From positions 9,610,001 through 9,674,000 of the forward strand of contig NC_134025.1 of NCBI RefSeq assembly GCF_964204645.1: 64,000 nucleotides of DNA, read 5' to 3'. Both the position numbers and the translations under genes were made by a program. The notes beneath the pieces were generated by a model. The model saw only the letters and a program-made list of their open reading frames with translations, searched no databases and had not been told where the DNA came from. The DNA comes from Tubulanus polymorphus. Its lineage: Eukaryota; Animalia; Nemertea. Below, piece by piece: positions 11,401 to 38,400 of this stretch (position 1 is the first letter of the stretch; every line of letters starts with the position of its first letter).

Positions 11401-14400
11401 ACCTACTTCTATTTCAAAGCTTTGTTGTTGTAGTTGTCTTACATCTGGTCGTATAGAGGTAATTCTTACTCTTGCATCTTGTAGGTCTGAGCTAACTGAC
11501 TGTACTATTTGTTGGTATTTTTCTTGACGTTCCAGAGCCATTTGTAATTCCCGCTCTTTTTCACCAAGCTAGTTTAAAAGTAAATGAATTATAATATGTT
11601 TGACCATAATCAACTCCAACACCAGCAGATATCATTGACCATAAGTGATATAGATGTTTTTCATTACCTGTTGTTGCAAACTGTCCCAACATGAATTTAA
11701 TTCATGGAGTTGATCTTCATCTGAATCCACCTCAGTTCTTGGACTTTTTTTTGAGATTTTATCACTCTTTACATCTCCATGTAATGGACTGACATTATCT
11801 TGGTCACGAACCTTTGCAGAATCATGTCGAATGTCTTTCGCTAAAGGCGCTTGTGCAGACTGTATTTTTGCATCCATTTGCTTTTCTGATTTTTGAGACA
11901 TAGTTTCATCATTATTGACACCACCAGGTGTACTTCCACGTGTACTTAGAGATTGTTCTTGACTTATCGTGTCATCTTCAGGCTCTATATACTTTGGAAT
12001 GTCATATCTCTGTATACTGTCATCTCCCCCAACAGCTTGATGTCCTGGACTTCTGTACTGGTTTTTGTCACTAACAGGTGCACTTTCTGATTTTCGAGAC
12101 ACAGTTTCTTCATTACTGACACCACCAGGTGTACTTTCATGTGTACTCAGAGATCTTTCTTGACTTATCGTGTCATCTTCAGGCTCTATATACTTTGGAA
12201 TGTCATACCTCTGTATACTGTCATCTCCCCCAATAGCTTGATGTCCTGGACTTCTGTACTGGTTATTGTCACTAACAGGTGCACTTTGATGTCCACGTTC
12301 AAATGTTCCAGGTTCAAACTGACTGCTGGTATCATCTCCTGGTGCTACATACTTAGGGATGTCATACCTGTGACCTCTAGCTTCAGCCTTATGTCCTGGA
12401 CTTTTGGTCAGCTTGCCATTCTTGGACTCAACTCTGGGATGAACGCGGACAGGAATCTTGCTATATTCTTTCTTATTGGTTCTATCATCTTGTTCTAGAT
12501 ACTTTGGGATGTGTTCCATTTGACTTTCAGGATTAACAGGATCTGTGTCTTTAGTTATCTCCTGCTTGCTGATATCATGGCCATTTGGATCTTGATATTC
12601 TAGTTGTTGTGTGTTCAATTGGACCTTTTCATCTCGATAACTTGGCAGATGTCGGTCAATTGGGTCTTGATCATGATAATCTTTTGAAATATCTCTTGCT
12701 TTCTCTGCAAAGTCTTTTGGTGGACTTTTAAGAACTTGGGAAGTCTCTTTTTGTACAATATTTTCAGACCAAGTTCCGGCAATGTCACTTTCACTTTGGG
12801 GATCAGTATTAAAGAGGCCTTGATCTAAAAGCTCTGCTGGTGATTTTGCCTCAATCGACTGAGGGTAATCATCTGTACACTGAATAACTATAGCGGTTCC
12901 AGGATTTACATTAAATCTTTTTGTATTAATTGAAACAACTTGTCCAGATTCAACAGGACAAAGGTTTGATTGTAATATGTCTGGCTGTCCTGAAATATAT
13001 ACTGTTTCACCTGATCCAACAGCAGCTGCAGACGAACCACTGCCAGCAACTGCTGGATTATAAAGCACCAAACTTTCTCCTGGGTTAAGTATTTTCTCCT
13101 GTGCATCTACTAAAATTGACTCACCAGTTGGTAAATGATGTTGTACAGCTGGTACAATTGCTTCGGTTTCAGGAAGCAATAACAACGTCTCTTTCAATGA
13201 AAGATCTTTACTAACATGTTGCGTTTCAATAGAATCGCCTGGTTTTAGAAGCATCATCTGTCCTGTATTGAGAACAACTGATTGGTTTTCATTAGACTTA
13301 TCAGTAGGAGATACCAAAATGTGCATGGTATGGTCATCTTGGAGGGCTGATCTAGATTTGTCAGTTACTCTAGGAAGCTTCACTTTCTGTTCTTGTGGAA
13401 GGGACATTCCTGTAGAATTCGGTGGTATTGTTGACAGTTCTTGTTCACCTTTCTCACCTTTCGTGGTGTTATAATCAATACTTTCAGTCCCAAGAGGTAA
13501 TACTCCCTGATTAACCCTGGTCACTATTTGAGCACGTTTCATAACAGGAGATTGAATAACGGCTGGTTGTTTACCTGTTTCAGGCTCCAGGAGTAGCGCT
13601 TTACCAATCTCATAGCCTGGTACTTCTGAGGGAGGAACTACTGCAGATAGCTTGTCCGTTGCTCGATTATCATTTTCATATTCTTGCAATGGCAGGTGTT
13701 TTACAATGGACTGTTCATTTGAAAGCTTTGGAGGTGTTGAGGATTGCATTAGTTCACTAATAGTGGGTTGAATTGAGCCAGGTAAGTAGTTATCTTTAGT
13801 ATCCTGCTTCAATCTGTCATACCCAAACACATTGTCTGAATGTCTCAATGAAGCCTCTTGGTGAGGTATATTCGTTTGATATGTATTGTCTAAGTTAACT
13901 GTCTGTTGTTGGAATATATCAGGCATGTCTTTCGTTTTTTGCTTCAGATAATCATATTCATCAGTTTCTGCTCTCGTAGCATCTTGGCGAGGTCGATTAT
14001 GATGAAGAGGTTGACCTTCACTAGACTGTATTGAACCAGGATCAGAGTTACCAGCCTCCAGACTTGAACCAAACAAATTATCTGTTGAATAATTCTGTGC
14101 TTCCTGGTGAGGCAGACTTTGGAGAAGAACATGCTCGCCTTGTAACTGTGTTGAATTAGGATGAAAACTGTACATTTCCTCAACGCTATGTTTTGAATCT
14201 CCATACCCCAGCAGATCTTCCTTGTAATGTCTTTGAGGATCTTCTCGTGATTCAGGTTTCTGTGGAGCTTTCATATTACCTGAACTTGGGACAATAGATC
14301 GAGAAGCATCTCCAGGGAGCATAATCATCGTCGAAGTTCGATGCACCAATTCCGTGCTTTCATCATCAACAACATTTGGACGCAAAAAATGCCCTGTATC

Positions 14401-17400
14401 GTAAAGTCTATTATCACAAGCATCAGCGCCAACATTCACATTGATCACAGCTGAGTGATTGATATTTGAGTCATTGTTATTCGATTTATCAAAATCTGGT
14501 GACTGCAACTTAAATTCGCGCCCATTAATAACTCTCTCCACACTGGATCGCTCAAGATGGTAACTACGAGGCGATTCATTTGGATCACCATCAAACCGAT
14601 TGTCACTAAAGCCACGATTTGATGAACTACTACTGGCTCTACTTCCATCGATCTTAATATCGTACGTTGTGCAAACACGACTTGAACACTCGGATCTAGG
14701 TGGACTAATGATTATCGTTTCAGAATGTTCGGTTTCTTGATATTCCAGCGCAATGTCTATTTCTGGACTCGAGATTCTACTTCGCGCCAACGTTACATTT
14801 TGCTCATCGTGTTCTGTTTCCGGGACGTCATCGATCACACAATATCCCTCGTACGATGTTTCTAGATAATCGTAAGTTTCTATACTGACTGTGCTCCTCG
14901 GCGATTGAACCAAAGATTCCTCTTTATGATCGGAACATGCGGTTCCATCGTCCATCACAGTTCCATCGGGTAATATCAACTGGTTATCATTACTACTTAA
15001 ATCAGTCATCATTTCGGGAAGTGTTAGATAGTCAGTGTTTATAGCACTTTTATTGAATGACACATCATCAGCACGCACAGGTAAAGCCGAGTAATCCGTG
15101 GAAAGCTGAACGTTAGTATCATGCGACGTGGCCAAATTCTCTGCTCTCAGTGGAAATGAAGAGTGAGATTTTGAGATTATAGTCGGCTGCACAATATCCT
15201 CAAATGGGTGCAAATCTGAAGGCTCATTTTCTACCAATGTTATGTTCTCCGGTAATAGATCATTTTCATTGTTCATTGGTTGAGTTTCCTTAATATCTTC
15301 GTTTCCTTGGAGTTTCCGACGTTTGACTGCGGGACTTGAGTGCTGGTTGCGTTCTTCTGCAAGGAGTCGGCTTTTCAGTTGAATCGACTGAATACGTTCT
15401 TCATAACTTTTAATTTGTATGGTAAGTGCCTACAATGATGAAAGACGTCATGAAATGCTTCACTGTGTAATATATTTTTCTATACTAGATTCATGGCAGC
15501 TCTGATTGGATTAATCTTTACTCAACTTAATTTCAAATGTACCTTAGAATCAGTGCTGATCATTTTAGCAAACTTTTACTAGTATATAGTGACAGTTTTC
15601 ATAAACAATTGTTATGATATATCCAATCATTTTGGAAATATTGATTCTGAATCTATAAGATTGTATTACTGAAAGAAACCCTAACCATGAGTACATCACA
15701 TTTACTCAAATAATATAAAAATGTTTCTTGAAACTACTGTTTCATTATCAACCCAGCTCTGGTTATTAACACATACTTGATACGAATGAACAGAAACGAA
15801 TGGATCATAAAAACGTTTGCATTTGATTAATCAGCCCTACACATCTACTGTGATGTATATACGCGTATTAATTTTTAAAGCCAATGCACATTGAGTATCA
15901 TCAACATGTACGAATGACAATTATGAGAGTTTGTTGCGATATTGCCAAAGCTCTAGAACATTTCACATGTCATAACAATGTGCAGTAAGAATATATTTGC
16001 TTCAAAAGCGAAACCCAGCATCTAATACTATAGTCCCGCATAGTCACAGACCTATTATTAGTATATTGGAGCTCTATGGACTTGTTAGATACACATAATA
16101 TCCCGGCCAAATATCCTACATCCCTTGATGAACCTTTTAATGAGCCAGAATAAGCCTAAATAACATCTAACAAAAACGATCATAGCCATACTTTAATACC
16201 TGAGATATAGACATATGAATAATAATATGTTTATCTTACTGTTCGCCTACCTATTTTTCACTGTGCAAGTCGTAATCACTTGGAATACATATAACAACGC
16301 ATATAAAATACATACTAACTGTAATGCATTGATGACTGATACGTAGAGTAAATAGCTCTAATACCTAAGCCGCTCTTTTACTATTTATATTCATTGAAAA
16401 AACCTGAATACCTAGTAGTAGGTCACTGTGTGATGTGCGTGCTTGCATGTGTAGAATAGAATAATTTATCCACATAGAAAATTCTCTCAGTGTGCCGTTC
16501 AAAATATAAACACCAACTGCTACTACATCATAAGTGTGTCAAATAGCATTTTTCCTTCCAATAGTTTGAATAGAGAATCAATAAGACTTGAAGTGCACAC
16601 ACTCAGTGACACCCTATTAACTTCACAAGATTCAAATAAAAATAGGAACAATTTTGTTAGAAAGAACTTGTTATTCTAGGACGTGAAATAATTTTAAAAA
16701 AATGAAAACATGAGAATTACCGGTACATCAAACGCATAACATAATTTACTAAAAGAATGACCAATGGGGATAAACATGGTTGTTAAACGTTATGAGAATG
16801 GTGAATCCATTTAGAGAGACAGGGTTCAGAGGGGATGCACTCAAATTAAGAACCTCTGTTTGACAGTTAGTAGCTACAAAATCTAAAATATTGCAACAAT
16901 TTAAAATTTTTTGTGATGTATTAACATTTTCAAGGGAAAACATAAAAAAGTATAACAAATCTTAATAGAGCTCATATGCAAGAAAAATATGCACAGTGAC
17001 TGGAGAAGCAATAATTTACACTATAATCTACTAGTTTTCTGAAAACCATGGAACTAGTTCTCTTTGGAACTACGTTTAATGCTAACAAGATGCATGATAT
17101 GGATATAACTTAAGTCTTTACCTCTTCATGAGCTCGGTCCGCTTTGGACCCAAGTATCTGCTTGAGTAGATATAATTAGACAAGCTATGACAAACCAAAA
17201 TAATAATTTGTATGAACCACAATATTATGACTACTTAGGTTGTTTAATAAATGATAATATATATTGAAAATTTTCTATCTACCGGTACTTACACTGTGCT
17301 CTGCGATCTGCTTTTTCAATCCATCAATAGTTGATGATTTCATTGGAGCCGCATACAGTTTCTGCTGCGCTTCGTTTATCAGACCCTTCAACTCCTGTAT

Positions 17401-23400: not shown

Positions 23401-26400
23401 TATTTTCTATTCTTTTCCTCTAATTCTTTGATTGGTTTATTGAGTGTTAATGATAGAGCAGAAACTGCAGCGGTTTCATTCATCCACGACTGGATCTTCA
23501 ATTTATCCCTCTCAAATTCGCGCCGTTGCGTAAGGGCTTCTTTAAGTCGTCCCAACACAACCTTCGGTTGACCTTTCATTGCCAGGTACCGAGTTTCAAT
23601 ATCTGCAATGAAAATTAACTAATCAAATTATTGGAAGTCCTTTGAGAATGGATTATGACAAGACAATATCTCTATATCATACCTCTAATTTGCTTCATAA
23701 GATAAGGTCTACTTTCTTCACAGCAGTTCTGTTTCAGATCATCTGTAAGAGCTTTCAGGTTCTTTACCATAGAATCGACTGATTGTATTTCAGAATCCAT
23801 TTCCTGTATAATTGATTCAATTGCAAACATTCAGGACATAATGTAAACCAAAATGTAGAAGACACAAATCAATAATGAGTTAGAAGTAATCACAACTACA
23901 TAGGAAATCTCCCACAGTTTCATGGCAACAGCTTTTTGAAATAGGTAGGGAATCGGTATAGCAATTCTTGAACATGAATTGTGAAAAAAATTGTAAAAAC
24001 CTGAAAAAAGATATCAAATTTTCATAGATTACTAAGCTATTGATTACTACCAATTATGTCAAATAAATCTTATAGATTTTGCTGAAAAAAAAATCAAAAA
24101 AGGATAACAACAGTAGTGATTAAAGTTTTCAATGATAAATAACCACATCGAAAGCTTTGGCAATTCACATTATGGAAAGTTGTTTGGCTACCAGTAGTCA
24201 ATTCTGAACTGGTAATGACAAACGAAGATATTATGTTAAAATATCCATGTAAAAATAACCTTAAACTGGTCAAGTGATAGTTCTATTTCACCGGAATGGT
24301 AAGGAATGCTGATTGTCTGCGATAACTCTGCCTCTTTCTCAGTAAGCCAGTTCTCGATTTCCAAATATTGCGACCAGAATTGACGCCGAAGTTTAACAGC
24401 TACATTTAACGTGTATAATTTCTGGTGAACGGCTTCACGTAGTTTGTAGTGTTCAATATGAACGAGTTGCAGTCTCGTTTCGACAGTTTCTCGGTCTTTC
24501 TTCGTCGGCAGATTTTTGATTAACTCGTCACCTTTCCACCGCGTGCTGTTGATAATCGATTGATTTTTTTCAACGTCCTCATAAATGACCTGCCATGAAA
24601 ATATAAAATTGATTCAAATGAACCAAAAGTGATTCATTATACCTAGTGGGATTGGATAAGTACAATTAGCGTTATGAATAAAATACATGTATTTCAAACT
24701 ACTGAGTACCACACCGGACCCATCAGCAGGCTTCCCTTATTCTCCTTACTGTTCGGGGAGAGGCCAGTTAAGAACAGTCGATTTGTTGTTAAGACTGAAG
24801 CCTTCAAACACCAGAAAGTAACGACTTGAGATTAGTATTTCAAAGTCAATACCTGTATGACGTCTAGTATTGATTGTACACCCTCTATTTCGAAACCAAG
24901 CGGTTCTTCTCTGTGAATTACTGCAATTTTTTCTGACAACCAGTGCATGTAATCGTCGATATCTTTGAAAAGGTCGTCGTAATTTCCGTGTAGCTGTTCA
25001 TAATTTTCTAGTTTACCACTGATGTATTTGTTGATATTTTCAAGCCTCTGTTGGATTTCCCTACAGTTGAGACAGATAAATTACGTACATATTCTTTGCT
25101 TTAGATGAGAAAAATATCGAAACCATAATATCCCGATGTAAGATGAATATTTACCCAACATGATTCTGGACAATGGCTCTGTCGTAGTGGCTTACAGCAG
25201 ATTTCACTAGCTCTGCTTTTGAGGTAAGGATTTCAACGTCTTCTGAGAGATGACAAGCGGTACTGCGTAATTTCTAAAAAACAATAATATGCAAATATCA
25301 TTTACAAAACATGCTCGTTCTGATGTATAATTAACCTGTTTATCATTTAAAGGAACAAATGAAAATGCTTTCAATCATTGAAAAGATTAAATATCATGAG
25401 AATGTGAATTTTGTATTTCTATATGCTCAACGTCAACATAAGAGAAACCATTTTCAGACCAAAAAACCAGTATTTCATGAACATGTATATCGATATAGGC
25501 TATCGATTTAGGTGCGATGAATTCACTACAAAACTAACAGTCTTGGAGTTTATGAAAACAATTTACTACTGATTTACAGCTTCTTGGCAACTAAAAATCT
25601 ATGCCGCTTTACACCTACCTTGATCGCAGTCACAGATTTCTTTAATAAATGAACGTTGTTCATAAGCGTAACAACTAATCGTTGCCTTTTATTATGTATA
25701 ACTACGTGTACGCATATAATGAAACATATAAATGTCAATGGCGGGTCAATTTTACACACCAATAACCATTTTACATGGGGAAAAACTATTACCGGTACAC
25801 GCTTATGTCTGCGCGTTAAAGATTTGCGTCTTTAAGATTTTTTAATTTAAAAAAAAATTAAAATAGCAATACGTGAAAAGGGTTTTGAAGTAGAATAGAG
25901 ATGAGAAATCAAATTCTTTTCTTAATTCACAGAGAAAGTAACTCTGGGATGTGATATCTATTTTTAAGTAAATACACGGTAAAGTTAATCTTTTCTGGAT
26001 TGACTAAATTAGGTATGCACATTCTCACTACAAAAAATAGGTTATCAAAAACAAATTTTTTGAAAATGAACGAAGGCTTGTCAATGATTGTTCAAATTTA
26101 TTGTAGTAACAGGTTTAGAAATAGATATTCATTCAATAAGTGACAGGTCATGAGAGACAGGTTAGTTACGTCCCTTGTGAACAAAGTCACTGCATGAAAA
26201 TGTTTTTGCACTAAAAACAAGCTTATGTTTTTTTGTATTTGTGCAATGTATTGTGGTTTTACTGATAATCGTGATATTAGTAATTTCTTAATGAGAGCTG
26301 TTGTTGTCTGTACACTGAAATGTTACTTAATGATTTTTTTCAATTCCATGTATCTAGCCATGCTATCACCTAAAAGGCAGATCCAGATGAGTTACAAATT

Positions 26401-29400
26401 TCAGAACGGACTGTCTGTGCGTATAGTAGAAACTGGTTATAGGTCGATTCTAAATCTTATTGTGAATCTCTGCGTCATGAATTCATTCAAAATAAACTGG
26501 TCACTTAATCGCCATAAAGCTGCTTGATATAGTTTTCAAATTCAATATCATCTTTATATTGTCTAATATCGATGTAAAACGATAAATATTAATCTCAAAA
26601 TCCGTCTCTCGCATGTGCTGGTCAGTGAGTATACGTCTGTTTGAATTTCTTTTTGAAAATGTTCTAGACTTTACCATAGATATATCATAACACCAGATCT
26701 TAATCAGTTCAAGATTTCAGTCATCAAAAATTTTCTTAATCAGATTTAAAATCTTCTTAACAGGATCTCTTAAATCTAGCATTAAGATATATATTTCAGG
26801 GTAAATTATTCTAAAGGCAAGATCTTGCTGGTCTGGTGATAACTATTTCACACGCATGTGTGAATGCAGTTATCGGTAAAAATCCCCAAGGTATCCCCTT
26901 GGATAGAAATCCCCCACCTTTTGAAAGGCTAATTAATTCATATTGATATATTCAATTTATTCATATTCTACTAGATTGTATTTCATAAGATTATGAGGAT
27001 ATAAGTTATTGTAAAGTTTGGATTAAAAAATACTACAAATTGAAAGTTCAACTAAAGATTTATTAATTCTAAAAAAAATCAATTGCAGTTTTGTCTGTAA
27101 TTCACATATCTCAGTCCATGATATGAACTTCAGGATTTTTGTATTATTTCTAAAATTGATCAAAAAAGCTTTATTTGGATTCTTATGTAAAATGATCCTC
27201 AAGATATTGAAGAATGAGGAATCCTATCGCTACTATCAATTATTCCACTTCGGACTAGTTCAACTAGTAGCTTACTTTGGTTATCCATACTTCTGCATTT
27301 CAATTGAAATTGACTATACCAATCACCCAATAGAGAAATCAATCTTATTTATATTTTGATAGGTTGCGTGATAAAATTTGGATTCGGGAGCCTTAAGATC
27401 TGGTTTAAAATCAATTATTATGCGTCACCAGATCTGCAGTTCTCCATTCAGAACGCCATCTAAAGTCACAGGCCAGTTTATTAAGGGATTCTCAAAACTT
27501 GAGGAAGTAAATTGTAGAGAAATAAATTCATTTTGCTGGTCGATGGCAGACATAAAATATCATCATTCCGATGCAGTAACATCACAACAAGAGACTCTGA
27601 GATTTCAATTGGCTTTGGTAAAAAGTTGTACGAATAATCATGTGACAAAGCATAAATAGAACAAGCAAATATCCAAACTTTTCATTTCAAAATAGCAGTT
27701 TCTCTATCAACTACTATATTGGATATTGGATATTTTTCACCATTCACCAAAACCTGCTAGTCCGAAAAAAAGCCTTGCATGAAAATGCTGGAAGAACATT
27801 GAAGCTGAATTCCAAGACAACAATAGCACATTCAATTATTCAAAGCTTTATTGATATATTGAAAAAGGCACGCATAAGAATATATAACAGCCATTTAAAA
27901 CCTACATACACTATCTACATTTTTGCATTACCTAATACTGATGCTTTTCATTTCACCTAGAAGTTTTTTTTCTTCGATTTTCTTCAATGAAAAATGGACG
28001 AATATGACTGTGTACAATACATACGATGAAAACGTAATCAAAAATGATTTTTGCATATAAAATTTATTTCAAAACCTTTTTTCGCAATGAAATCATATTC
28101 TAAGGTGGAATATTGCTCATAATTATGTCGACTCTGCTGCCTACTAAAAATCAGTTAATTGTTTCCTACATATCTACCTTTGTGAATGAAAATACACGTT
28201 TCGAACTAATGATACGCATAATCGTAAATATAACAGTCAAAACAGGACAATATTAATAAAATGGACGGAATTCTTATCAATATATAAAGAATATGAATAT
28301 AAATAAATCTAGCGATAAATAGATAAATGAGAAGAAATCACAAAAAAATTCGTACAAATAAACAAATCACAGATTCTTTGACGCTTCTATTAGAAATCAT
28401 AAAATGATTTTATGCTATTTTGTGTTATTATCTACCTTCAATGTGGACGGTTGATTATTGGAAATTGAAAAACTAATCTATTTACAAGGAATAATATTTC
28501 CATGTTTGAAATACATCCTAATTCCACTAAACTAATTTCGAATACAAGAGTACTAGTCAATAAATTACTGATATTTCCATTTTTAAATATCTATTTAGAA
28601 GTGACGATAGTGAAGTGATCACCAATTTTCCAGCTTGGAGGGAATATTGACAACTGGATGCGGGCGTACACAACCGATTTGACACCAAAGATGGTACATT
28701 ACCGGAAAAAAATAAAATATCTTAACTTTACACTAAAATAGTTTAACAATAATATACACTTTCTATATCAACAATATCCGTTTACTCGAATATATTTCAG
28801 TATAATTTTCCTAAGGACAATATCATTGTCAAATAGCTTTTACTTTTTTTGCGTAAGTAAAAAGTCACTTGCTAAAATCATTAAGTTAGGCATGAAGGAA
28901 CACACCTAATAACAAAACAACACTATCGATCTACTGGAGAAAAATTGAGTAATTACGTAAAGCTTGGAGCAAATCACTCCAAGGTGTAAGTAGAAAACTT
29001 GTTGCCGATCAAAACCAAAGATCAGTTTCATCAGCAACAGCACCTTTTACAGTTAATAACCTGTGCTAACACTGGATAAAACTAGGCTATAACAATCTAC
29101 CGTATCTATAAAATCATAAAACATGCTATAGGCCATTAGCCTTTTACACCATAAATTCAAATTCAGCCAATGAATACTTTGATAAACTCATAAAATCATT
29201 TCAAGTGGTTAAGATAACAATATAACCATGGGATTAGTTAGAAAGCATGTCTTCATAATACTCTGATTTAACCATGGAAGACAATTTTGAATGTCAAATT
29301 TGGGTTCATTCACTTCTTTTTACTGAAAGCGCAGCAGATTATCTTCTATCGACGATGATTCGATGTACTGTGTGTTCATCTATTAGTTAGTAATAATTTC

Positions 29401-32400
29401 ACTCGATAAAGTGTCCTTCATTCTCTCTGAGATTCTGCGCAGTTCGTCAGCCTTTCGCGAGACATTCTTCAGGTCGTGGTCGATGTTTGACACCAAGTTA
29501 TGGTTGACGATGTCGTACTTTTCGCGCGGGCTGTACGGACTTCTCGGACGGCGGCTCGGTTTGTTGTAATCGCGCACAAAGTCTCGACTGTCGACGTTTC
29601 GAGGTAGATTCAGGGTCGACGATCGCTGGGATGGCGGTGGAGGCGTGAAGTATTGGGGCGGTGAGACAGGATATACAGGCGCCGGTGTAAACACGGGAAC
29701 TGCCTTCGTGTATATTGGTCCTAGTGGAGGTGGCGACGACACGGTGCTTGTACGATCCGATTCATAGTTATAATCACCGGCACGCGGAGGCGGGGGTCGA
29801 TATTTCTCGTAATCGGCCAGCGGTCGAAGGGGACTGCGGATGCTCGGGCGATCACGCTCCGGAGCTGATTCGCGTTCGGGTCTCAAACGAGAAGCCGAGC
29901 TGGATCGAGGTGCTGATCCCGGACGTCGTTTGATCGATGATGGCGGTGTTACGACCCTCATCGGTGACGCGGAGTACCCACGTGAATTCGGCGATTCGTA
30001 GTCTTTAGTAGGTGGAGAGTACCGTGCAGTCGAACGCGACCTACTCGGGACAGATGGAGGCAATGTATTCAGCGGTTTGTATGGATTATCTTCCTCAACA
30101 TTATATCTACCATTGACTGGTTCACGCAGACTTTCATTCTGAGGTTTCTTCTTCATCCACGGCTTGAATGGTTTTCGTGTTTCTCCACTCGAGAACCCGG
30201 AATCTTCAGCAGCCGCTTTGTTCTGCTCAGCAAGATCGCTGTTCATGTTCTTAATTGTATCTAAAAGTGATTTGAGCGCACGGCCACGAGGGGTACCGCG
30301 AGAGGGGTCGATATCATGCGGTTTGATACGTCCGTTGGGAGTCTGAGTTCTGGCATTCGAAGGTGTCTGCATTGATGAATCAACGCTGTTCATGTAGCCG
30401 ACGACGTTAGTTTGAACTCCGACATTTTCTGGAGTTTGGGTATAAGCCCGTTTCGGTGTTTGCGTCTCGATATTGTGAATCGACGGCACGTATCGAGAAG
30501 AAACGCCGATGTCCGATTCTGCGTCGGTCGTATCAACGGTTGTTTGGAATTTTCTCCATGGTTTTGATCGCTGCCAAGGTTTCTTCTTGGTCTGCGTGCC
30601 GGCATGATTAGGAGTCTGAGTACGACGGTTCGATGGAGTTTGCATTGCGAAGTTGCGACTATCCGCCGGTTCACGATCCGACGCCCAAAGCGAAGACTCG
30701 TTGTCGTCGTCGTATAACTTATACCCGCTGCCGTGACTCCCGTTTATCATCGGGGAAGTTGATTTCGCGAGTGGACTTGCGCGAAGATCGTCAACCGAGT
30801 TCTTAAGACTTTGCACCTTCTCGGCCATGTCTTCTAACTTCCTACCGAGGTTATCGTCAGCCGCAGATTTCGGACTTAGACCTCGCCTCTTCTTATCCGT
30901 CTGCGCTCCGTGCGACGATCGATACAATCGTCGTCCGGTCTGGCTAGCCATATTATCAAATGGAATCGTTTGCGAGCTGAAATCGTAGGTCGGTATGTCT
31001 TCAGCATTTACGTAGCTTGCATGAGGCAAACTGCCTGATGTTCCAACGCCGATTTCATTTGGGAAGTCAGATAGGTAATCTTCATTCAAAGGAGCCCGTC
31101 CAGGACTATGGAAACGGGCAGGCGACGGCGATGAGCTGAGTAAATCTCGTGACGGCGTCACGCGTCCTAAACCCGTATCGTCGCTGCCATAAGTGCCTCG
31201 TTTGGGAGATAACAATCGATTCGGTATCTTACTGTCCGTAGCCGAACGGTAGGGCCAGAATTGTTGCGAAATTCCGGTATGATCGCCGCTGTTTCTCAGG
31301 CCACCCGGTCCTCGGTCGTAACTATCGCCGCTACTGTAACCACCTCTACTGGCTGGACGATTGGCATAACCAGAACCTAATGTTCCCAGTGGACCAAGAC
31401 TTGCGCCTAATGAATAACTATCCCCGGATTTCTTAAGTATATCTTGTTCAGAAGTGTACAGTGGATCCTTGGCCGATCTACCGAGCTCTTGTTTACCGGC
31501 TTCAGTTTTCTTCAGTTCAGCTTCGAGATCAGGTGAACTGCGATGACGCTTCAGCATAGACAGTTGGGTTTGCGTGGCGCTGGTGTGCGGCGTTTGAGTG
31601 GATGTATCGTGCAAATTCAACGAGCTTGAACTTCGAGCTTCAGCCTGAAAATGAAAACGAAATTCGTGATTAAGAACCTCGCATTTGAAAATGTACACTA
31701 CAAGAATCAAAACATTTATTGTACATGTGTCAAAATGCTACCGCCACTACTAAATAGATAGTAATTCAAACAATTAAAATACGTGGATGGTTAGAGAGCT
31801 TGGCGTAATAAGTCTAACTTATTACTCCAAGGTTAGAGAATATGTGATTTATCATTCGTACAAGCATGGAAGGCCATTAGCAAAAGGACAGAGTACCAAG
31901 AATTTAATGCGGAGCTTAGGCCATGTTTACCCCACATCAAGTAGTTAGAAGGTTAAAGCCTTTGCACGAAGTGGTCTGCAGCAATGCCACCTGCACCATC
32001 GCTTAGAATTGAAGGAGTCTGAGATAAAATTGGCCATAAAAATCAATCTCGAATAATCAAGGAAATAATCGGAAATTAATCAAATTAAGACTTCAGAAAT
32101 TAAAGGATACAGGAAAAAGTACGAGATTTTTTATCATTCAAGAGCATATATTGGAAAATAATGAGATAAGAGAAAGACTTCTAACATCTAAAAAAGTCAT
32201 AGGTCATCAATATATGTGCAAATTTTTAAGGATTTGGTGCCAATTTTTAATTGGTGTTCTAACTATGGTACTAAATGTGAATTAAAGTTAATGATCTAGG
32301 ACTAGCATACTAGCATTTCATAATCATGAATAATTAAAGCAACCTTCTCCAAAGCTAATTGAAGCACACTATATCTATGAAATTACAAATAAAAGGGAAA

Positions 32401-35400
32401 CTGATTTTATAGTTATACATATTTCAGTCATAAGAACATTTCCTACAATGTGGTATTCTAGAACCAATGATTTGCGTATACGATAATACATATGCATAAT
32501 GAAAGTCCTTTTACAATTTTTCGTATCAATCGTTTTTAGACCATGCATTCTCATACATACATCATAAGCTCATTTTGCACGAAACCGAACATGCCATCGT
32601 TAATTCGTCATGAAATCTCGATAAAGCATCGACATGACTGCAAAATAATCCGCCTTCCCTTTACAATACACCTGTAGTGGGGAATTAACGAGCGAAATTC
32701 ATTTTCAATTGATAACCTGTCGTGCGCTGATAACGGCGTAATTTTACTCGTCAATAGAGATCATTACCGTGCATTGATCATTGCTTCAAATGAATGCAAA
32801 ATGCGGACATAACTCTGAATGAGACAGAGATTGATGAAACTGGATCTATCAATTGCGTTCAGTTTAAACGCGCCAAAAAGTAGTTCATCAAAGAAAGCGT
32901 AATCAAATGAAGATACTAACAGGAACTTTAATATGCGAGTGCCCTAAGCTAGTCTCACTTACAAATATTTGCCTAAAGCTATTTCTCTAGTGATTCAATA
33001 TCTTTTACAACCACAAAAAAAAATACCCGAGCAAACAATCTTCGTTGAAAAGAAATAACACTCTAGATATTTTTTGAAAGTTACACCTTGATATCTTGTA
33101 GTACTGTAAAAGTTAGCAGTAATGTGAATATCAAAAACACTTAATATTTGATTTATCTCCTTCCCACCGATCAAAACTTCCAATATTTTTTCATTAATTG
33201 GAACAAAATGATTACCAATTCTATCAATTATTGGTCTAATTACTTTCTACTGACAGAATGCTAAATATGACTGTATTTTTTTTAATCAAATTACAAATGA
33301 ACACTTGCCTAACAATACAAATTTTCAATTCGATGCTTTTATCAGAAATATAAATGCAATGTATCTAGAATTCTCATTCGTTATACCGACCTCGTTAACA
33401 ACTGGATTTAAATCCCAACTGTAACAATCATAACCGTACATCATCAACGATATTAAAGCTTGAATTTCATACGTCGTATGAAAGTTGAGTGAATTGGTAG
33501 ATTTTCGCGTTAGTGGAGGTCGAAATATGCCTAGTGTTACGCAGGCTGTCTGTCATTAATGGTATATTGGCGCATAACTCTTATCAGCGGCGAACAGACC
33601 ACTTGCCAACCAAGCCATTTCATCGATTCCAAACAAACAAGCAGCAACGTTTAAACCAATAGAGCAGTTAATGAGAATGCAAGGTACCGACAGAGCATTT
33701 AATGAGAACGCATGGTAATTCCCGATTTCAAAAATCCGATTACTTGCCCGTACGAATTAAGAATCCGATCTAAAAAAGCAGCTTTCACCATGGTAACTGC
33801 TTCAGAGATACTTTAACAAGGTACCGAAGAATAGTTATGCCGATAATATAGGCTCAATGAAATTCCCAGACTGATTAGGGCTTCAATATCATTTGTAGTG
33901 AAGTGGCTTTGATAATAGCGAAAAACTCGATAAAAATAGATAAAGACTTTATCACAAGGCAAATAATAATAATATTGCCAATTCCATCGAAACACATTAT
34001 GTTTGACGAATAACTTTCTAATTGACCATATAGTCAAGAAATTGAGTACAGAGTATGAAATTCATATTGCTCAACTCACTTCTTTACTGAAGTAATCCAG
34101 AAATTTGTGAATCTAGCTTCATATAGTCGTGTCGTTTGCTATGCGCTAATTATCGGTTTTTCAGACACACCCCACTGATTTCTGAATTTACGTGGCAGCC
34201 GTGAATAATGCGTGCCTTTTACTTCTCAATGGAAACATTAATATTGTAGTAATACGTCTGCAGAGGGAAGTCAACTACTAGTCGTTCGAATTGTACTCCG
34301 TTCCCACACGTTTACAAAGCGAATTGCAAATTACTCAACAAAAGACCAAGTAACGACCTTATTCATTTCTACGATGATATCTTATTCAAATAAATTCTTT
34401 CGCGGATTCGTCGGCGAAATATTGTAACCAGCAGAAAAAAATCGGAAAATGGCCTCTAATGAAAACTTAAAATATGCAACACATATTCCTGATATACTCA
34501 TAGTGCATGTAGGCATCTAAAATATTAATAAACCAATTCAGCTAGAGGCATCGGATGGTCGCATAACGTTGTCGTATATACCTAGCTGATAGTAAAATAA
34601 TATCGGAAATCGCTTCAAAACGTCAGTTAAAGCCCAGTAATAGAACATACTAAATCATAACAAACTAATAATCACTAATCTCAGACATAAAGTAAAAATA
34701 CATTTCATATGCTAATGAATCTAACACTAAAAAATAAGTGTCATACAATAATGAATTGGAAACATTGAATAATGAAAATCTAAGGGTAAAATTAGGATAA
34801 AACATGATAACAAAACTTTAAAATTGACATTTTTTTCTGGAATTTGATACTTCATGGTAAAAGAAATCTAGATATCTGGGCAGATGGCTTTAACCCTCTA
34901 TCACCTAGGATGGTGAATCAATTGAGACTTAAAAAGTCTACAACCCCGGTAAACGACAAAATACATGACTGTTGTTGTAAATACCTTTTCATCAGAATTC
35001 CATCATTTAGGCTAAGAGGAGGACAGGTAATAAGCAATGACAATTGAGTCTCACACCACACGGACAGCATCACTCCGAAAATAGTTTAGCCAGCACGCTT
35101 TCGTTATCTCTCGCCTCTAAAGCAGTCACAATGTTAGGATTTTTCACACCGGAATAAGACAAATTAGAAGCGGCTCCACCGTGTTTTAACGAATTCGTCA
35201 TCCGTTTTAGCACTTTCTTAATCCTAAGTTTTCAAATCGTAAAATGTTACAGTAGACATCATCCGAATTTCAGCATGTTCATATACGGAGATATCTGCTC
35301 TAACTCATCCCCGAGGGCCGTTAATGGTAGAATCAAATGAAATCTCAGAACAGGATTAGTCTATTATTGCCCGAAATCGCCTGCTGTGGAGTAAATTAAT

Positions 35401-38400
35401 GTCGTAGTCATGGAGTACAATTCCACCGATGGCGTGTCTCCGGCTGGTCTATTATATCACTTTTATTAGCGACAAAGACGAACAGCGCTACATGCAAAGC
35501 GTAACTGCCCGACTATTTAGTATTTCGCAAAAACCGCATGACTAAGTTTTCTTAATTTTCCAATATCCGTTATTTTATGTTCGTACGTTAACATCACAGA
35601 GCTAGATTGACACGCACACCACCGCGTACAGTCGTAACCACGAGCACTAGTAATATAATACCGCCGCCTGACAACCGCGATTAAGCGCAATAAATCGAAT
35701 AGAATATTATCAATTCCTCTTGTGCATCCATGTATATTTGTCAACTTTAACGATAATTATTGCCGTGAAATAAAGTGCAAAGCAATACCTCGGACAGCAA
35801 ACAAGTTGCAGAATGACAAACATTCACAACCATATGCTTGATATTCGCGTTCCAATATCTATAATGGTCGTAAACATATGCACAAGCATTGTTTGAACTA
35901 GCAATTCATTCTTACACGAATTCATTGATAATGTACATGATTTCAGTAGTTTATTGATTTTACAGGCATTCATGACCGGACTGACCGCCCAGTTATCAAA
36001 GCTTCATTGATTGGTGCCACGTCGAGTGAAAGTTATGTGAAAATCTTTTCATGCGTGCGAAAATGTTGACCCCAATACGAACGGATTCCGTCCAACATAG
36101 CAAATAATGTGCCTTTTTCATAGTAACATGCAATTTAAATTCCTAAGCGTATACAACTTTAAAAAGCAAAAATGTCCGCGGTCATATTGTAATGGGGAAA
36201 TGATCCGTGCTCCACAGTCATTATGGTACAATTTAAGGTCTCGTTAAAGATTACTATTTTAGATAAGGGCGCAATATAAGAACTAAAAATAATTGCAGCA
36301 AATAAAAGTTGGTTTACGTAAGTGTGGTTAGGGAATGAAATACAAAACAAATTCAAAAGCACTGGCAGAGAACAAAAGCTTGAACTATCTAATAAAGCAT
36401 CTATGACTAAAAAGGCAATTTATTACGGTGCTTGAAAATAAATGTAAATATCAAATATCAAATCAAACATAGGGTATATTTATATGGAGCATAGAAATGC
36501 AAGGACAACATAATAAATCATGAAGATTTTTCTGAAAATTTCCCCCACCCAGTTTTGGTAAACCCATTTCAGCAATAGGACAGTTTAGGTACATAACAGA
36601 CATCAGAACCTTGTAACACAAAATGCAAAAATTGTGTGATGAAGTTTACTTTTGGCTACAAGGCTTTTTATCTGTCTAGGTACTGATATATGCTGAATCT
36701 AAGCTATGATTTTCTAAAATGTTTCAATGGGGAGAATTATCTATATCTAGTAGCTTGAATTTGAAAATTTAGAGCAATAGTCCGGTAAGCTAAAGTATCG
36801 TAATCACATTGACACATGTACAGGAATAAGACAAGACATGGACTAAACTAACAAATGAAGAATACAAGCAAAATCAAACATGAGTGACCAAGCAAAATAA
36901 GTGATAATGCAGCCCAGATCAAAACAAGAACTTATTCAAAATCATGAAAATTTTCAATCGAACGTTTAATCGAAAAAAGTGATTGGACAAAAGTGCCTTT
37001 TATAATCAACTTGATTCTTCGAATATCAAATTTCAAACAAAGATTCAAGTGCTGGATTCAACACTAGGTAAATATCCATCAAAATATGACCTACCTTAAG
37101 TCTATCGGCGTTCTCCGCTACAATCATTTCTTCGCGTCTGTAACGTTCAAGTTCTGCCTCCAGTTCTTCGACGTCTCGGCCGACTTGACCACGTTTTTTG
37201 TTATAAGCGTCGCCGTTTTCCAATGCGTCGCGACGTTTTGACATCAAGTTATTGACACGTCCGAGCAGCTCTTCATAGTCTTCTTGTAGCGCTTTGATGA
37301 CCGGATCTCGCAGCGACGGATCATGTTGCGTCAGGTTTTTGTGTTTCGTCAACAAATTGTTCAACATGCGTTCTTTCGATCGTATTTCGTCTTTCAGGGC
37401 CTAAGAGGAAACATGAAACATGAAAATCATATCAACTTATTCAACAACCATAAAAAAAAAAAAACTAAAAACAAAAAACAAAAAACTAATTGACAGTTTT
37501 TTCTAGCAGAAACCGGAGAAAAGATCAATGTTGTTTGTTTTCTATTCCTGCATATTGCAGAACAAAAACAGTTTTTCTGCTGGAAAATGTGTTTTTCAAC
37601 AGCTGTGATAACGGCTTCACTGGCTAGTAATTCTTACTGACCTGCATATGAGCTAACTCCAGTTCACCGGCATCGGAGTGAAGTTTCGCTGGGCAGTCTT
37701 CGAGGTCTTTCAGCTCAAGTTGCTGGGTACGAAGCCAGTCACGGAAATCAGATTTCATCTTATTGACATCTTCCCACTCTTTGACCAAATCATTGAGACC
37801 ATTCACTCGATCTTCGACCTATTTCATGAGCAAAAAACATAATTCAAAAATTGGTACTAATGGGAATGAACAACAATTACTAATCAACCTAACTGGATAG
37901 CTTAGCGAATCAAAAGTTCAATAAGAAATTTTTAGGTGATTCAAATTAAGATTTACTGGAAAAAACATAATATTGTTTTTGGCAAATATTTTACTGGTTA
38001 CCATGGCATTTAAGAAAGTGAATTGAAATTTGTTAATAGAAAAAAAGAAAACATAAAATGTTAATCTATTTACAAGCTAGTAAACAAAAAATTCTTAGTG
38101 TATCTACTCTAGTGCGATTGTACTACTGTAATTCCTGAAATTCAGCAAGATTTTCTAACAGAAAATAGACAAAAAATATCAAGAGTATTTAATCAAAATC
38201 CAGGGTTACAAAATTACTACTAATGAAGTACGGTAACTAAGATTTTTTATCTAAATTTCTTGAAAATGAATTCATTTATCTTTTGTTTTAACAGTATGTC
38301 CGACAGAAAAGGAGCTACCGATAGATCAGAGGAAAGTCTTACCCTCTCATGAGCATCTCGCAGGTTAAAGTTGACACGATCGGCCAGGCGATTGACCGAA

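Follow-up and report, generated by a model that had tools for sequence, protein, structure and literature searches.

A candidate multivalent LC8-binding tail encoded by an alternative last exon of a nesprin-like gene of Tubulanus polymorphus

An alternative last exon of a nesprin-like gene of the nemertean Tubulanus polymorphus encodes a tail that is predicted, with a probability of about 0.65, to be a multivalent client of LC8 (DYNLL). A candidate array of LC8-type motifs had been proposed in a preliminary description of the same DNA; this proposal was supported by the predicted disorder of the region and by motif flanks that, apart from the anchor, agree with the LC8 preferences given in the literature. 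The analysis covered a window of 64,000 nucleotides (NCBI RefSeq assembly GCF_964204645.1, contig NC_134025.1, positions 9,610,001 to 9,674,000), and all coordinates given below are those of the window.

The host gene and its alternative last exon

The window had a G+C content of ~36% and consisted of animal DNA occupied by a single minus-strand gene with many spectrin-repeat exons. Two of the nine frames scanned were above the cut-off of the Pfam spectrin model (PF00435), and four matched the model of nesprin-1 repeats (PF25034) below its cut-off. The best database relative (P0001) and two related loci (L003 and L020) exceeded the PF25034 cut-off, had in common a diagnostic stretch of 56 residues (50% identity) and were colinear with window exons on either side of the tail exon. 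Because of the PF25034 matches, the diagnostic stretch and this colinearity, we call the host a nesprin-1/MSP-300-like spectrin-repeat gene. Neither a CH nor a KASH domain was found within the 64-kb window, and the gene extends beyond both window ends; the label of a KASH-less nesprin isoform rests on homology and exon order. The exon at 37095-37400, used as a query, retrieved no longer relative; no metagenome locus was recovered with a spectrin query of 270 residues, and an alignment query found none in prokaryote genomes.

The coding part of the tail exon (29383-31644, minus strand) is an open frame of 753 codons followed by the stop codon TAA. It is preceded by a pyrimidine-rich acceptor (TTTTCAG at 31645) at the end of a GT-AG intron of 5450 bases in phase 0 (31645-37094, minus strand), which separates it from an exon of 102 codons (37095-37400, minus strand), the last spectrin-repeat exon common to both isoforms. 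Contigs from X3 and X5, two of four runs and from two studies, used this acceptor and spliced exon 37400-37095 to 31644 in frame, and they also contained intron joints on the upstream side (nine in X3 and eight in X5); these contigs were counted as transcript-derived because they skip GT-AG introns, neither run being recorded as RNA. The runs X2 and X4 were without such joints and appear genomic.

The short isoform has a probable 3' UTR at 27837-29382 (minus strand), with AATAAA signals starting at 28068 and 27852. The X3 contig that defines it spans 27837-29577 and stops 10 bases beyond the distal signal. Small insertions at 28172 and 28697 in X3 and X5 (11, 2 and 6 bases relative to the window) made the UTR polymorphic in length; no such length polymorphism was seen in the coding exon. 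Within the tail exon, the runs differed from one another at four places (three silent, one T64A), none of them inside a motif.

The next exon of the long form (25155-25273, minus strand; 119 bases, entered in phase 0 and left in phase 2) was recognised by its frame and splice signals. It restores the open frame between exon 37095 and an exon at 25060-24853; its acceptor is good, its donor is in phase 2, and a profile of the relatives matched its frame weakly (E = 0.54). The donor at 37095 would have two possible acceptors, that of the tail, which was observed in the contigs, and that at 25273, through which the rod would continue. We infer the second join from the frame; the contigs contain no such joint, which does not count against it, and one later rod splice, from 24853 to 24589, was observed in X3. 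A split of the gene between 37095 and 25060 had been suggested by a phase mismatch (a phase 0 donor and a phase 2 acceptor, with a product ~37 residues short compared to the relatives), and was dismissed once the 119-base exon was found.

Four features of an alternative last exon were found: a spliced terminal exon, a stop codon, a poly(A) signal and an in-frame continuation of the rod downstream. The product of the tail exon is rich in Ser, Pro and Arg, has a net charge of +26 and contains no transmembrane or hydrophobic stretch (best 19-residue mean, 0.6). Since the intact alternative acceptor at 25273 would carry the rod onward, and since the tail is without a hydrophobic stretch, the tail exon most likely yields a shortened, soluble isoform without any KASH domain.

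A second giant non-spectrin exon was observed within the long form (11666-15428, minus strand). It holds an open frame of 1265 codons with a net charge of -81, had no Pfam match and contains a duplication with a 67-residue period close to its end; with an acceptor on one side and a GT donor on the other, it is likely internal. L003 contains a frame of 1280 codons without a Pfam match beyond its rod.

The QT motifs and their flanks

All thirteen QT or TQT motifs quoted in the preliminary description were present, in a single minus-strand frame between 31611 and 30337. A fourteenth, PWRKFQTT (30538-30561, minus strand; Q codon at 30546), was missing from that list; it breaks three of the LC8 rules given below and is probably not an LC8 site. 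Fourteen of the 25 Gln residues of the tail precede Thr, and thirteen of these pairs have an LC8-type anchor (seven TQT, two SQT, two MQT, one VQT and one AQT). In 20,000 shuffles of the exon, QT occurred 1.73 times on average and at most eight times; for TQT, observed seven times, the mean was 0.12 and the maximum three. Five other large frames of the same gene contained between zero and two QT apiece.

The motifs are spread over 420 residues in five separate clusters, all on the minus strand. Cluster 1 (31564-31611; HDTSTQTP and HTSATQTQ, interval 8) lies 11 residues past the last spectrin exon, and cluster 2 (30895-30987; YDFSSQTI, DNMASQTG and SSHGAQTD, intervals 10 and 13) just ahead of a predicted helix at tail residues 259-289. 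Cluster 3 (30586-30657; RNFAMQTP, SNRRTQTP and NHAGTQTK) and cluster 4 (30406-30477; HNIETQTP, KRAYTQTP and ENVGVQTN) each have two intervals of 8; the middle motif of cluster 4 is predicted to be weak, and a CDK-type site, TPKR, precedes it. Cluster 5 (30337-30384; VDSSMQTP and SNARTQTP, interval 8) is found 15 residues ahead of a second predicted helix, at residues 452-481. Across the fourteen QT the intervals were 8, 200, 10, 13, 87, 8, 8, 16, 28, 8, 8, 15 and 8, so that the exact 8-residue spacing described earlier was recovered in six of thirteen. Six equal intervals of any length were obtained in none of 100,000 uniform placements, a null that ignores clustering and overstates the case somewhat.

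As set out in PMC6607443, an LC8 motif comprises eight residues, from -5 to +2, with mid-sized residues at -1 and +1, a polar residue at -4, a large one at -3, no aromatic residue at -2, P, D or E at +2 and no internal Pro; the same source states that many TQT peptides fail to bind LC8. Position -1 was T, S, V, M or A in 13 of the 14 QT motifs, position -4 was D or N in nine (background 12%, binomial p = 6e-6), and position +2 was P, D or E in eight. Positions -5 to -1 were free of Pro in all motifs except FQT (13/14), although Pro makes up 10.5% of the exon. A large residue at -3 was not enriched (9/14, p = 0.25). The flanks were also scored without the anchor by our own coding of the rules in section 9 of PMC6607443, which is distinct from LC8Pred: the observed score was 13, against a null of -6.2 +/- 5.0 (p = 9e-5; 200,000 draws), and both this p value and the per-position ones would be optimistic if the motifs shared ancestry by old duplication. 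No rule was violated by seven of the 14 motifs (Q17, 235, 248, 335, 343, 395 and 411). The other seven violated at least one; five had a small residue at -3, one an aromatic residue at -2 and one a hydrophobic residue at +2, in addition to FQT.

Pro follows seven of the 14 QT, in agreement with the earlier count of seven motifs ending in TP. These might be part of an array of sites on which proline-directed kinases (CDK, MAPK, GSK3) or a phospho-reader act, LC8 having no part in it, and the tail contains 28 S/T-P where 16.7 were expected, seven of its sites being full S/T-P-x-K/R. The other seven QT are without Pro, however, and 21 of the 28 S/T-P lie outside the motifs. Sites of these kinases require neither Gln before the Thr nor D or N five residues upstream. 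Furthermore, LC8 itself prefers Pro at +2, so that kinase control gains no separate support from TP; an array devoted to such kinases was judged improbable.

The tail also contains 12 S/T-Q, compared to 5.3 expected, which might point to a cluster for ATM/ATR-type kinases. Such kinases do not require the Thr that follows nine of the 12 S/T-Q, and five of the 14 QT are excluded as substrates by the A, M, F or V at their -1 position. Because of these two counts, the conserved unit is QT rather than S/TQ. ASCIZ is named as an ATM substrate in the title of a reference in PMC5963919; for the tail, a cluster of this type was nevertheless considered extremely improbable.

Alternatively, the exon might be lineage-specific and evolving fast, and the motifs might be what remains, without function, of old duplications of 24 bases. 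The period of exactly 8, the likeness between clusters 3 and 5 (SNRRTQTP and SNARTQTP, 17 of 24 bases) and the failure of the searches to find a tail homologue would all suit such an origin. It is opposed by the retention of Q-T in every unit in spite of scrambled synonymous positions: the Gln codons of the motifs are eight CAA and six CAG, and all four Thr codons are used. The most alike pairs of motifs had 16-17 of 24 bases in common, the flanks at -5 to -2 mostly only 1-7 of 12, and Tandem Repeats Finder found no tandem repeat in the exon at score 30; the separation into five clusters also stands against it. The scrambled codons argue against a recent DNA repeat, and the mixed Gln and Thr codons, together with the lack of a tandem repeat, fit selection at the protein level. 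Leftovers of this kind were thought very improbable.

Searches with the tail gave no homologue at E 0.001 among 1.84 billion representatives, none at E 10 when 7969 candidates with lengths of 1319-3765 residues were compared (a set that does not reach proteins near the tail in length) and no Atlas match to residues 315-480 or 680-753, empty results that are weak evidence for a low-complexity eukaryotic sequence such as the tail. The only Pfam match of the tail was a sub-threshold one to the Caskin tail (E = 0.069). In 24 related loci, many of them short, at most two anchors were found per 120 residues, compared to eight in the tail. Six related loci (four distinct) had a rod that crosses the tail-exon point as a single aligned piece uninterrupted by an intron, in a comparison that left out rows under 28% identity, L006 and L017 among them. 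Since the rod crosses there without an intron, those lineages lack the exon at this point, and it may have been added in one lineage. Conservation is listed in PMC12057147 as a filter for genuine LC8 sites.

Predicted shape of the tail and spacing of its motifs

The sequence flanking the motifs had been called disordered, and the region was so predicted: a single-sequence AlphaFold2 model placed 627 of the 753 tail residues at a pLDDT under 50, and all motifs lay outside predicted helices, in blocks whose mean pLDDT was 30-41. Three helices with heptad patterns were predicted with confidence on the minus strand, at residues 259-289 (30778-30870; a/d residues L, M, V, L, V and L), 452-481 (30202-30291) and 706-752 (29389-29529). 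The first two are likely short coiled coils and the third, terminal helix is likely a coiled coil. Disorder with flanking helices, as predicted for the tail, is described in PMC9481538 as a setting of LC8 clients; according to the same paper, such clients often have coiled coils alongside their motifs, and LC8 can give rise to higher oligomers. In the tail, two motifs are located right after the last spectrin repeat, three just before helix 259-289 and eight between helices 259-289 and 452-481. The suggestion that the array adjoins the terminal coiled coil did not hold, as the last QT is residue 434 and the terminal helix begins at 706, ~270 residues away; the main array is flanked by helices 259-289 and 452-481 instead.

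Other short motifs were noted in the tail. A single SKIP motif (31222-31233, minus strand; tail residue 138), with Asp immediately ahead, is one that we take to be an SxIP, EB1-type motif. A proline-rich stretch that separates the array from the terminal helix (29600-29830, minus strand) contains several PxY/PPxY-like and PxxP motifs, among them PPPPR, PVYP and PPQY, which may be ligands of WW or SH3 domains. The tail, which is basic and rich in Ser, Pro and Arg, might make contact with microtubules.

With a motif of eight residues, a period of 8 leaves a linker of zero residues, and six neighbouring pairs abut in this way. Linkers of 3-9 residues are described for solved two-site LC8 complexes (PMC12797016), of 3-4 for KANK1 and 4-5 for Nup159 (bioRxiv 10.1101/2025.07.16.665182), and, for ASCIZ, of 3 residues in the fly protein and 1 in the human one (PMC10046861). 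The worry in the preliminary description that the sites may be mutually exclusive was reasonable in view of the solved complexes. Because the 8-residue period equals the LC8 footprint and is tighter than the linkers in those complexes, abutting sites on one chain pair probably compete for LC8. The number of predicted sites that could be filled was computed to be at most nine of 13 if nine residues are needed, and eight of 13 if eleven are needed.

An extended chain measures 0.34 nm per residue, and eight residues therefore span ~2.7 nm. This value was compared with the ~3.5 nm per dimer of the KANK1 rod model (15 dimers, ~53 nm including a hinge; bioRxiv 10.1101/2025.07.16.665182) and with the LC8 bead of ~4 nm (PMC5963919), and the difference would suit strands that stack on each other or bind a partner of shorter footprint, for which an LC8 paralogue that has diverged or some other protein with a groove would be candidates. 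The period is, however, exactly the LC8 recognition length given in PMC6607443, the flanks obey the LC8 rules, and the 1-residue linker of human ASCIZ (PMC10046861) is a precedent for very tight packing of real sites; a partner of this type was considered unlikely. The zero linker is tighter than the cases in the LC8 papers that were compared, and could mean that the array serves another binder.

The zero-linker tiling might also be a design: if abutting sites cannot hold two dimers on the same chain pair, neighbouring dimers would face different chains. They would then cross-link many nesprin rods to form a lattice or a bundle, with exon choice deciding between a nuclear tether and a cytoplasmic LC8-spectrin network, and with TP phosphorylation dissolving the latter; this arrangement was regarded as rather unlikely.

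The splice of the tail exon to the spectrin rod likely produces a shortened isoform that is devoid of the nuclear anchor. If the tail of this isoform is a multivalent LC8 client, as preferred here, each 8-residue motif would add as a beta-strand to the LC8 groove, and several LC8 dimers would likely bind the disordered tail, clamping two or more tails together; this clamping would stabilise the adjacent short coiled coils. Because six neighbours abut without a linker, probably only alternate sites in each cluster would fill at once, giving mixed complexes that depend on LC8 concentration and not one rigid rod. The likely outcome would be a cytoplasmic spectrin-rod dimer or bundle that is turned on by exon choice. 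More tentatively, a proline-directed kinase might phosphorylate the Thr of TQTP or MQTP and so release LC8. The LC8 site of Bim is TQTP and is phosphorylated by JNK. Phosphorylation of clients at the anchor or close to it strongly lowers LC8 affinity, and phosphorylated Bim leaves LC8, according to PMC12017986.

Comparison with known LC8 clients and nesprin isoforms

The tail resembles ASCIZ/ATMIN (7-11 sites), Nup159 (5), KANK1 L2 (7-15), GKAP and LCA5 in its many QT-anchored 8-residue motifs, and also in their mixed predicted strengths, in a disordered region and in coiled-coil segments nearby. It differs in having six zero linkers where KANK1 has 3-4 residues, Nup159 4-5, ASCIZ 1-30 and the solved structures 3-9. 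Unlike the arrays of those clients, the predicted array of the tail comes from an alternative exon that is joined to a giant spectrin rod.

Nesprins without a KASH domain have been described, as human nesprin-1 variants (PMC3388047) and as Drosophila Msp300-PB, -PE and -PF (PMC8616381, PMC11230431). As presented in these papers, they terminate within the spectrin rod and have a unique C-terminus, as the tail isoform would. The human example gains 8 residues from a retained intron, whereas the tail is a true spliced exon of 753 residues; Msp300-PE carries acidic 100-residue repeats and a membrane helix, whereas the tail is basic, predicted to be disordered and has a QT array and no membrane helix. 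The term LC8 is absent from the main texts of these three papers. The C. elegans KASH protein UNC-83 is reported to bind the worm LC8, DLC-1, directly (PMC4284225). UNC-83 is small and membrane-anchored, and it binds near its KASH domain; in contrast, the predicted sites of the nesprin tail are many, and they lie on a form that would lack the anchor. No report that a giant nesprin carries LC8 sites or an LC8 array was found in the literature searched, which included few subscription journals; interactome tables in supplements could list contacts between nesprin and LC8.

Six matches to the LC8 pattern were observed in four records that carry a bacterial-genome label (L025, L026 and L028 on one contig, and L027, L029 and L030), and none in viral contigs. 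L025, L027 and L030 encode a full canonical LC8, L027 being 89 residues long with E = 5e-57 to solved DLC2, and three matches lie in tandem on one contig of 20.7 kb. These matches are probably eukaryotic contamination of those assemblies.

The six-fold zero-residue linker, seen in one genome, falls below the range described in the LC8 papers. The tail would be a natural test case for how linker length sets LC8 cooperativity, a question that is posed in those papers. If the LC8 reading is true, an isoform of a giant nesprin would swap its nuclear anchor for a self-assembly tail controlled by LC8.
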